Source: Candidatus Aminicenantales bacterium (lineage in GTDB: Bacteria; Acidobacteriota; Aminicenantia; Aminicenantales; Aminicenantaceae). Taken from it: a stretch of 64,000 nt of DNA. Below are positions 25,258 to 28,645 of the stretch, piece after piece; position 1 is the stretch's first letter; each line of letters opens with the position of its first letter. The position numbers and the translations under genes were made by a program. The DNA lies in assembly GCA_046760305.1 (NCBI GenBank), contig JBHIDX010000007.1:5185-69184 (forward strand), given 5' to 3'. The notes under the pieces are model-generated. The model saw nothing but the letters and a program-made list of their open reading frames with translations. It had not been told where the DNA came from and made no database searches.

Positions 25258-25332
25258 AGGCGCGTAGCTCAGTGGTAGAGTGCTTCCTTGACGCGGAAGA
25301 GGTCGAGGGTTCGATACCCTCCGCGCCTACCA
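25258..25332 (+). tRNA. tRNA-Val (anticodon GAC)
   Basis: 7-bp acceptor stem AGGCGCG/CGCGCCT. D arm GCTCAGTGGTAGAG. Anticodon stem CTTCC/GGAAG with loop TTGACGC. T arm GAGGGTTCGATACCCTC. Encoded CCA. Confidence 0.9.
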
Positions 25333-25410: not shown

Positions 25411-27333
25411 ATGGCTGAGTTTGTCAAGGTAAGTATAGAGGGGTCTGAATTTTCAGTCGAAAAAGGAACTCCTCTCTCCGAGCTTATTCCTCGCCTTGGG
25501 CTCGTGGAAAAACCCATCTTGGCCAGAAAGGACGGTGAGCTGGTGGACCTCAGCACGCCTCTTGAGGATGAAATGGAAGTGAGAATGGTCTACAGAGATT
25601 CGGATGAAGCCCTCGAGGTACTGCGCCACAGTGCCTCTCACCTGCTCGCCCATGCTGTTCTAGAGCTATTTCCAGGAACACTGTACGGGATTGGCCCCGC
25701 TGTTGAGAACGGTTTTTACTATGATTTTTTAAGGGATAAGCCGTTTGCTCCCCAAGACCTGGAAGCCATCGAGAAGAAGATGAGAGAGTTGAGCAACAAA
25801 GACCTCCCTATTGAGAAAGTTGTCTATTCAAAAAGAAAGGCGCTCGATATTTTTAAACAGCTCGGTCAGGAGTTGAAAGCGGAGCTTATCCAGGAGAAAG
25901 CAGAGAAGCAGGTTACCTGTTACAGGCAGGGAGATTTTATAGATTTCTGTCTCGGTCCCCATCTCCCCTCAACAGGCCATATCAAACATTTCAAAATCCT
26001 ATCTTCTTCCGGTGCTTACTGGAAAGGTGATGAGGAGGGGATTCAGCTTCAGAGAATTTACGGTACTGCCTTTTTCGAGAAAAAACAGCTCGAGGAACAT
26101 CTCAGACTGCTTGAGGAGGCGAAGAAGCGTGACCACAGAAGGCTTGGCCAGGAGCTTGATCTCTTCAGCTTCAACGAGAGTTTAGGAGCCGGGCTTGTTC
26201 TCTGGCACCCCAGAGGAGCAAAAATTAGACAGCTTATCGAGAATTACTGGCGCCAGGAGCACATTAATGACGGCTACGAATTTCTCTTCACACCCCATGT
26301 AGCCAAGCTCGATGTCTGGAGGAGAAGCGGACACACAGAATTCTATGATGCTCTCTATCCTCCTCTCATCTCAGAGGGTGTGGAGTATGAGCTCAAGCCG
26401 ATGAACTGCCCTTTTCATATCATGGTTTTCAACTCACGGCAGCGCAGCTACCGCGAGCTTCCTCTCCGCTGGGCAGAGCTGGGCACGGTTTACCGCTTTG
26501 AACGCAGTGGTGTACTCCACGGATTGCTGAGGGTAAGGGGATTCACCCAGGATGATGCCCACATCTTCTGCCGTCCAGATCAGCTGGAAGAGGAAATAGG
26601 AAGAGTCATCCACCTCACGCTGAGAATGTTGAAAACATTTGGGTTTAAAGAATTTGACATCTATCTCTCCACCAAGCCGGAGAAGTATGTGGGTTCGGAT
26701 GATGACTGGGAGAAGGCCACCAGCGCCCTGAGGAACTCCCTCCTCACTGAGAAGCTTGAGTTCAGGATAGATGAAGGACAGGGAGTTTTTTACGGACCAA
26801 AAATAGACATCAAGATAAAGGATGTCCTCCTCAGATCATGGCAGTGCACGACCATCCAGCTTGATTTTAATCTAGCTGAGAGGTTTAACCTTAGCTACAT
26901 CGGGGATGACGGCAGAGAGCACCGGCCCTTTATGATCCACAGGGCTCTTCTCGGATCCCTGGAGAGGTTTTTCGGTATTCTCATCGAGCACTACAACGGA
27001 AATTTCCCTCTCTGGCTTGCCCCAACCCAGATTATTATCCTTCCCATAGCAGACCGCCACAACGAGTACGCTTTCTCCCTTGCTGAGAGATGCAGGAGTT
27101 TCGGTCTCAGGACTGAGGTTGATGTCCGCCGGGAAAAAATAGGCCACAAAATAAGGGAAGCAGAGAAAATGAAAATACCCTTCATGCTCGTTGTTGGAGA
27201 TAAAGAAATGAACCACAAGAATGCTTCCCTGAGGATTCATACTCTCGGAGATAGGGGACAGGTAGAGGTGGATGAATTTCTTGAAAAAGTGAGTGAATTA
27301 GATAAGAATAAATCATTGGAAGTAAACATATAA
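25411..27333 (+). CDS. thrS: Threonyl-tRNA synthetase
   Basis: TGS N-terminal domain, editing domain with HSASHLLAHAV, class II core motifs, C-terminal anticodon-binding domain. 640 aa. Confidence 0.93.
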   Translation: MAEFVKVSIEGSEFSVEKGTPLSELIPRLGLVEKPILARKDGELVDLSTPLEDEMEVRMVYRDSDEALEVLRHSASHLLAHAVLELFPGTLYGIGPAVENGFYYDFLRDKPFAPQDLEAIEKKMRELSNKDLPIEKVVYSKRKALDIFKQLGQELKAELIQEKAEKQVTCYRQGDFIDFCLGPHLPSTGHIKHFKILSSSGAYWKGDEEGIQLQRIYGTAFFEKKQLEEHLRLLEEAKKRDHRRLGQELDLFSFNESLGAGLVLWHPRGAKIRQLIENYWRQEHINDGYEFLFTPHVAKLDVWRRSGHTEFYDALYPPLISEGVEYELKPMNCPFHIMVFNSRQRSYRELPLRWAELGTVYRFERSGVLHGLLRVRGFTQDDAHIFCRPDQLEEEIGRVIHLTLRMLKTFGFKEFDIYLSTKPEKYVGSDDDWEKATSALRNSLLTEKLEFRIDEGQGVFYGPKIDIKIKDVLLRSWQCTTIQLDFNLAERFNLSYIGDDGREHRPFMIHRALLGSLERFFGILIEHYNGNFPLWLAPTQIIILPIADRHNEYAFSLAERCRSFGLRTEVDVRREKIGHKIREAEKMKIPFMLVVGDKEMNHKNASLRIHTLGDRGQVEVDEFLEKVSELDKNKSLEVNI

Positions 27334-27386
27334 CATGGATTATTCATTCATTTTTTATGAATATTTCAGGCTAAAGGAGGTTTGAC

Positions 27387-28016
27387 ATCAGAAGAAGATT
27401 TTACAGAGGACGTCCGCAGAAGGAAAAACCGCATCGTATTAATGAAGGAATAAGGCACAGGGAGGTCAGGGTGATTGACGAAGATAAGCAGCAGATAGGG
27501 ATTCTCCCAGTATCTGAAGCCCTGGCACTGGCGCGCGAGAAAGACCTGGATTTGGTGGAGATTGCTCCTCAGGCAACTCCACCTGTATGCAGGATCATGG
27601 ATTACGGAAAGTACCTTTATGAATTGCATAAAAAAGCGCAGGAAGCTAAAAAACATCAGAAGCAGATTCAGGTTAAAGAAATCAAGTTCAGGCCAAAAAT
27701 TTCTATCCACGATTATAATTTCAAAGTGCGTCATGTTCAGAGATTTCTTTCTGAAGGACACAAGGTGAAGATAACAGTAATGCTCCGGGGACGGGAGAAA
27801 TCAAGGCCTGAGCTGGCACGAGGTATCATCGACAGAGTTTTTGAAAATGTAAAAGAAACAGCGAAACAGGACGGAGAGATGAAAATCCAGCCCTGGGCAG
27901 TCTCGGTTTTTCTAAGTCCGCAGAGAACAGGAGGAAAGGATGCCCAAATTAAAGACACACAGAGGGGCGAGGAAAAGGTTCAAAATAACAGGGAAGAAAA
28001 AAATTCTTCACCATAA
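27387..28016 (+). CDS. infC: Translation initiation factor IF-3, probable AUC start
   Basis: Conserved N-domain ([24 protein letters not shown]) lies upstream of the first in-frame GTG (27471). The frame opens after TAA at 27372-27374. AAAGGAGG SD at 27373-27380 is 6 nt before ATC 27387. IF3 classically starts on a non-AUG codon. The C-terminus runs 77 nt into rpmI. Confidence 0.6.
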
Positions 28017-28140
28017 AGCCTATAAAAGCCATATACTTACCAAGAAATCAGCCAAGCGGAAGAGAGGGCTGGGCAAAAAATCCCATGTAAGCAGGGCTGA
28101 TAGAGGGAGGATCAAAGAGATGCTTCCCTATGATTTTTAG
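27940..28140 (+). CDS. rpmI: 50S ribosomal protein L35
   Basis: [22 protein letters not shown]… 66 aa. AGGAGGAAAGG SD upstream. Confidence 0.92.
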
Positions 28141-28288
28141 TTCTAGCCCTCCATATTAAGGAAACGACTGCAAGCTGGAGGAAAAGCAAGTTTAATAGTG
28201 TTCAGTGGATTGAATTTATAGTCGAGTTTTTCGTTAATGCTTTATCCAGCCGGCAAACCCATGGAACAAAGGATGCAAGGAGAAGAAA

Positions 28289-28645
28289 ATGCCTAGAGTC
28301 AAAAGAGGACCTCGGAAAAAGCAGAGAAGAGCCAAGATTCTGAAGCTCGCCAAGGGATACTGGGGGGCAAGGAGTCACAACTACAGAACGGCCAAGGAAG
28401 CGGTGGAAAGAGCACTCCTCTATGCTTACAGAGACAGGAGAAGGAGAAAGAGAGACATGAGGCGGTTGTGGATTATAAGGATAAAAGCTGCTGCCGAGGC
28501 GAATGGTGTCTCTTACAATCGTTTTATTCACGGTCTCCATGCGCTCAACATTCAGCTCGACAGAAAAATTCTGGCTGATCTGGCTGTGAACTCTCCCCAG
28601 ACATTTCTCCGTCTCGCCCAGAAAGTGAAGGAGTCGCAGGTCTGA
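28289..28645 (+). CDS. rplT: 50S ribosomal protein L20
   Basis: MPRVKRGPRKKQRRAKILKLAKGYWG… 118 aa. Confidence 0.93.
   Translation: MPRVKRGPRKKQRRAKILKLAKGYWGARSHNYRTAKEAVERALLYAYRDRRRRKRDMRRLWIIRIKAAAEANGVSYNRFIHGLHALNIQLDRKILADLAVNSPQTFLRLAQKVKESQV

Follow-up and report, generated by a model that had tools for sequence, protein, structure and literature searches.

The gene for initiation factor IF3, infC, has been described as using 'either AUU or AUC' as its start codon and as the target of autoregulation by its own product (PMC5499595). The demonstrated case is that of E. coli, where, in the work cited in PMC5499595 and PMC2830850, conversion of the AUU start to AUG abolishes autocontrol (Butler et al. 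1987), AUU-based autoregulation was also described by Brombach and Pon (1987), and the demonstrations of IF3 feedback on infC that these two sources recount are from E. coli only. Such codons are weak starts: reporters in E. coli with the native initiator tRNA gave 352 units for AUC and 301 for AUU vs 7314 for AUG (PMC3643588), and in another system AUA, AUC, AUU and CUG reached 1–2% of AUG, with methionine found at the N-terminus for an AUC start (bioRxiv 10.1101/063800). Further non-canonical infC starts, in these cases AUA, are known from Deinococcus/Thermus (PMC2830850) and Flavobacterium johnsoniae (PMC7797042). In both, the annotated start lay too far downstream and the true one was deduced from conservation of the N-terminus (PMC2830850, PMC7797042), and for F. 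johnsoniae the AUA start was confirmed by mass spectrometry and mutagenesis (PMC7797042).

An infC gene of the same general kind is found in the window, by which is meant the whole 64,000-nt stretch of DNA that was analysed. Open reading frames and NCBIfam matches place it in a cluster of the order thrS-infC-rpmI-rplT-pheS-pheT, as in E. coli K-12, and the features of the region are collected in Table 1. In addition to gene order, the two loci share a protein that is 47% identical, with nearly equal N-termini, and a GGAGG motif followed by a non-canonical AUH start. A DNA-level search with the window infC against E. coli genomes returned no match. The two loci differ in several respects. As read from the E. 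coli locus, GGAGG is followed after 8 nt by ATT, whereas in the window ATC follows after 6 nt; the thrS stop codon lies 3 nt before the start in E. coli and 53 nt upstream of it in the window; and infC and rpmI, separated by a 96-nt gap in E. coli, overlap in the window. Compared with the AUA genes of Deinococcus, Thermus and F. johnsoniae the difference is in the codon itself, AUC in the window, and F. johnsoniae makes no use of Shine-Dalgarno (SD) sequences, in contrast to the strong SD of Aminicenantes infC.

Table 1. Features of the thrS-infC-rpmI region; positions are those of the window.
Feature	Position	Strand	Remarks
tRNA-Val (anticodon GAC)	25258-25332	+ (strand of thrS)	directly upstream of thrS
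thrS, threonine--tRNA ligase	25411-27333	+	640-aa ORF; TIGR00418 702 bits vs cutoff 384
thrS-infC spacer	27334-27371	+	only in this window; about 41 nt with the second TAA (27372-27374) counted
In-frame TAA closing the infC frame upstream	27372-27374	+	overlaps the SD; is the thrS stop codon in most relatives
SD of infC, AAAGGAGG(T)	27373-27381	+	AAAGGAGG itself 27373-27380
Spacer TTTGAC, SD to start	27381-27386	+	6 nt
ATC, probable infC initiation codon	27387-27389	+	6 nt past the SD
infC CDS as predicted from the ATC	27387-28016	+	209 codons and TAA stop
GTG, public-record start of infC (181-aa product)	27471-27473	+	rejected as main start
AGGAGG, rpmI SD	27929-27934	+	inside the infC CDS, 5 nt before the rpmI ATG
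rpmI, ribosomal protein L35	27940-28140	+	ORF; TIGR00001 88 bits
rplT	28289-28645	+	followed by pheS, pheT

Where translation of this gene begins is best approached from the protein. The IF3 equivalog profile TIGR00168 scores 209.7 bits against a cutoff of 60, positions 2–169 of its 170 being aligned to residues 13–180 of the product counted from the ATC. Both IF3 domains, PF05198 (IF3_N) and PF00707 (IF3_C), are recorded for the shorter 181-aa version in the public databases, and IF3 chains of known structure are matched with E-values of 7e-45 (5lmn_X) and 3e-42 (8jsg_A). Judged by profile, both domains, structures and gene neighbourhood alike, the gene is infC and its product bacterial IF3. 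For the solved N-domains the alignment begins at their residue 3, opposite window residue 15 in the case of 5lmn_X and 14 in that of 1tif_A, and residue 6 of E. coli IF3 pairs with window residue 9, so that the ATC-started N-terminus is 3 residues longer than that of E. coli. This agrees with the initial annotation, which had placed the conserved N-domain upstream of the first in-frame GTG (27471): since both the profile and the solved structures align upstream of this codon, translation must start earlier, and by these alignments the infC start must be confined to the stretch from 27375 to about 27423. Direct translation of the frame confirmed that none of the 32 codons from the TAA to GTG 27471, itself codon 29 counting from the ATC, is ATG, GTG or TTG. 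The TAA that closes the frame stands four codons upstream of ATC 27387, which is also the sole codon between this stop and the profile match to differ from ATG by one change at the first or third base. Two other codons of the AUH type, ATT 27444 (the Ile of the conserved RINE motif) and ATA 27456, were rejected as starts, both lying within the conserved domain and without an SD at a usable distance.

The public record takes a different position. The exact 181-aa protein that begins at GTG 27471 is deposited at NCBI as MFQ6069383.1, and neither version of the 209-aa product is on record. According to this record translation starts at the GTG and the open frame upstream serves as an untranslated leader, a reading that has on its side a canonical codon preceded at 5 nt by GGGAGG, which explains its choice by gene callers. 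It is nonetheless very unlikely. A start at this position, residue 29, would remove about 15–17 residues that match the IF3 profile and the folded N-domain of the solved structures, and the residues upstream of it (RRR.FY...KPHRINE) are kept as protein in relatives, close relatives differing mainly at third codon positions. The GGGAGG arises simply from the codons that spell R-E-V; a canonical start at the homologous codon occurs in 10 of 65 loci, only 2 of which have an SD-like sequence as well, and as far as these alignments extend the combination of GTG 27471 with GGGAGG is specific to this window. Being unconserved and truncating the N-domain, GTG 27471 was rejected as the true start. The two elements together, within 27457–27473, mimic a ribosome-binding site inside infC, and internal initiation there may yield a minor, truncated IF3 product.

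Within the confines set by the protein, the elements named in the initial annotation, an SD followed after six nucleotides by ATC, are all in place (Table 1). The SD motif by itself is not above chance, AAGGAGG being found 22 times in the 64,000 nt of the window vs 21.2 times expected. Seven other copies precede, by 3–9 nt, the canonical start of an ORF of 86 codons or more, showing that this genome does use AAGGAGG as an SD; with its 6 nt the infC copy conforms to the SD pattern of the neighbouring canonical genes. What puts the SD-ATC arrangement beyond chance, as judged from aligned loci, is its conservation among relatives rather than the motif alone. Scanning GTDB with one genome for each species gave 80 loci, 64 of which (L001–L064) are Aminicenantes-type, with IF3 amino-acid identities of 58–74%. 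These identities assign the window to an Aminicenantes (Acidobacteriota) genome, from an organism known through metagenome-assembled genomes only. When the window and 63 of these loci were aligned on the start codon (n = 64; L054, which could not be anchored, was left out), the homologous codon was found to be ATC in 23 and ATT in 41, and never ATG, GTG, TTG or ATA. Without exception the 64 share the A and T of this codon and two G's of the SD, and GGAGG is present in every one, 6–7 nt upstream of the start in 63 and 9 nt upstream in the remaining one, against a background of variable spacer and upstream sequence. Mapped onto a neighbour-joining tree built from the IF3 proteins, the third base must have switched between C and T at least nine times. 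Ten of the 63 relatives do have in-frame canonical codons somewhere between the stop upstream and RINE; these are sporadic, differ in position and share no register. A canonical start in another register, which the initial annotation had considered a possible refutation, was encountered in none of the 64 loci. In Aminicenantes, to judge from this alignment, AUC and AUU are interchangeable at the infC start and AUG, GUG and UUG are excluded. Two side observations concern the same positions: the base preceding the start (27386, position -1) is C in 60 of the 64 loci, the rest of the spacer being variable, and in many of the relatives among L001–L064 the start consists of a tandem ATC-ATY.

The same comparison bears on the possibility that the ATC stands for an ATG misread in sequencing or assembly, or that a nearby indel conceals a canonical start. 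In its favour is a prior alone, namely that non-canonical starts are rare. Over 27325–27480 the window is matched at 100% identity by Logan assemblies of two separate sequencing runs (SRR29324586, SRR29324587), including the codon at 27387–27389 for which an error had initially been contemplated; no indel restoring an ATG, GTG or TTG was found; and 63 independent genomes have ATC or ATT at this position with not a single ATG. In view of the two independent assemblies and the 63 relatives an error or indel was ruled out, its probability being negligible.

Outside the Aminicenantes-type loci the picture becomes more varied. In more distant Acidobacteriota GGAGG is again followed at 6–7 nt by ATC (L070, L073, L075, L078–L080) or by ATA (L076). 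A sister group of five loci at 47–53% identity (L065–L068 and L071), labelled Chrysiogenales, Patescibacteria or Aminicenantes, presents ATT followed directly by an in-frame ATG behind an SD resembling AGGAAAAGAG; in this group infC may use the canonical ATG, or the ATT and ATG may compete. In two loci, L054 and L077, the infC frame upstream of the conserved domain is either broken or offers no anchor, possibly owing to a frameshift, to misassembly or to a region that is built differently. PMC5499595 goes too far in stating that AUU or AUC serves all bacteria at infC, given the AUA starts reported in Deinococcus, Thermus and Flavobacterium and the ATT-ATG arrangement of the sister group.

At the junction between thrS and infC the window departs from its relatives. 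In 57 of the 63 the thrS stop lies 11–13 nt ahead of the infC start, its TAA or TAG adjoining the infC SD; the 53 nt of the window are due to an insert of about 41 nt (27334–27374), which holds a weak AT-rich hairpin at 27336–27368 and of which no further copy was found elsewhere in the window. At this insert the TAAAGGAGG junction appears to have been duplicated or retained. Searches for a regulatory element in the RNA or DNA of this region gave negative results: the fold of 27325–27430 is no better than that of shuffled sequence (z = -0.66), no Rfam family matches the window at the gathering threshold, the sole Rfam match at E ≤ 1 over 27100–28400 is SAM_alpha at chance level, and the promoter and terminator matches in 26800–28400 are likewise at chance level.

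Combining these observations with the precedent of E. coli suggests how the start may function. The strong SD, AAAGGAGG(U) in the mRNA, would place the 30S subunit at the AUC 6 nt downstream, and this codon would be read as fMet by the initiator tRNA. If the IF3 of Aminicenantes discriminates against AUC, as is assumed here, a high level of IF3 would lead to less initiation on infC mRNA and a low level to more, closing a negative feedback loop. AUC 27387 is very probably the main infC start, and it is likely, by analogy with E. coli, that this start serves IF3 feedback; the explanation as a whole, an infC that starts at AUC behind a strong SD under feedback by IF3, is considered highly probable. 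From sequence and analogy we infer both the actual use of AUC as the start and its repression by IF3. The initial annotation had proposed the same logic as that of the E. coli AUU with a different codon. This proposal agrees with PMC5499595 as to the choice of codon, and its second element, an autoregulation that has been shown for E. coli infC, stands for the window as a prediction.

An AUC start may also operate apart from any IF3 feedback, by setting a low constitutive rate of initiation, or by supporting re-initiation after thrS in those loci where the thrS stop is 11–13 nt upstream. Such a scheme gains from the thrS stop of 57 of 63 relatives, which adjoins the SD of infC, from the similar position of the E. 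coli thrS TAA, 3 nt before the ATT, and from the restriction of demonstrated IF3 feedback to E. coli. Against it, the window keeps its AUC and its SD although the thrS stop is 53 nt away, and through at least nine C/T switches the codon has never become ATG, GTG or TTG, as selection for an IF3-discriminated codon predicts. The last argument has its limits: a third base that moves freely between C and T and is never G is predicted by the IF3-feedback model and is also compatible with selection for low expression. Since low expression too predicts the exclusion of ATG, GTG and TTG, the low-expression or re-initiation scheme is only weakly separated from feedback by IF3, and is regarded as unlikely. 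The toggling itself is in keeping with AUC and AUU having proved equally weak in E. coli, and with selection against a strong start.

The non-canonical start can also be followed in existing records. Among the 120 nearest cluster representatives in public protein collections, about 100 are truncated, their first residue lying past the RINE motif, and about 10 start at or beside the ATY codon. Six NCBI entries (P0011, P0013, P0019, P0041, P0077 and P0083) have precisely the homologous ATC or ATT as their start, and two of these, P0011 and P0013, correspond by their N-terminal sequences to loci L016 and L014, respectively, both starting at ATC. Annotators have therefore already recognised a non-canonical infC start in Aminicenantes/Acidobacteriota, though inconsistently. 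What the locus offers is a re-annotation and an example, from a new lineage, of a textbook mechanism; the AUC reading is correct, the mechanism is not new, and an infC started at AUC opens no new question. The practical value lies in the correction of IF3 records that lack part of the folded N-terminal domain. In broader terms, the rule of a non-canonical IF3 start is extended to a deep, uncultured lineage, the Aminicenantes, and to other Acidobacteriota, and the 64 loci amount to a natural experiment in which the third base of the codon toggles between C and T at least nine times and never becomes G or A.

The downstream end of the gene is of note in its own right. Having no stop codon before rpmI, infC runs through the rpmI SD and ATG (27940) to the TAA at 28014–28016, the two genes overlapping in different frames over 77 nt (27940–28016). 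By this readthrough IF3 gains a 29-residue tail (residues 181–209) beyond the family profile. All Aminicenantes loci in which rpmI could be placed show an overlap of 8–104 nt in a constant relative frame, and the relatives examined keep the rpmI ribosome-binding site, CAGGAGGAAAAG-ATG, within infC. In the Logan gene calls of the window's contig (L082, L083) rpmI is missing, presumably because infC overlaps it; in all, at least two automated gene-call sets leave it uncalled. A C-terminal tail beyond the canonical domain is also a feature of Dsg, the IF3 of Myxococcus xanthus, where it exceeds 60 aa (PMC2241858) compared with about 29 aa here. The tail encoded in the window represents the 5' region of rpmI in a different reading frame and is of variable length among relatives. 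The dsg gene (Cheng, Kalman and Kaiser 1994) reportedly starts at AUC as well.

The arrangement raises the idea that infC in Aminicenantes may be the middle link of a tight translational chain from thrS to rpmI, a tentative and rather improbable proposal at this stage. Conserved RNA structure around the rpmI start was not found (the consensus fold amounts to -1.9 kcal/mol, with zero supported helices), and neither a covariance model nor conserved structure identified an L20 leader or operator of the Rfam RF00558 type upstream of infC or rpmI. Should access to the rpmI start be governed by ribosomes that translate infC, an IF3-sensitive AUY start would set not only the level of IF3 but also the synthesis of L35 and L20. 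If true, this would constitute an undescribed coupling of initiation-factor feedback to ribosomal-protein output, replacing control by the L20 operator.
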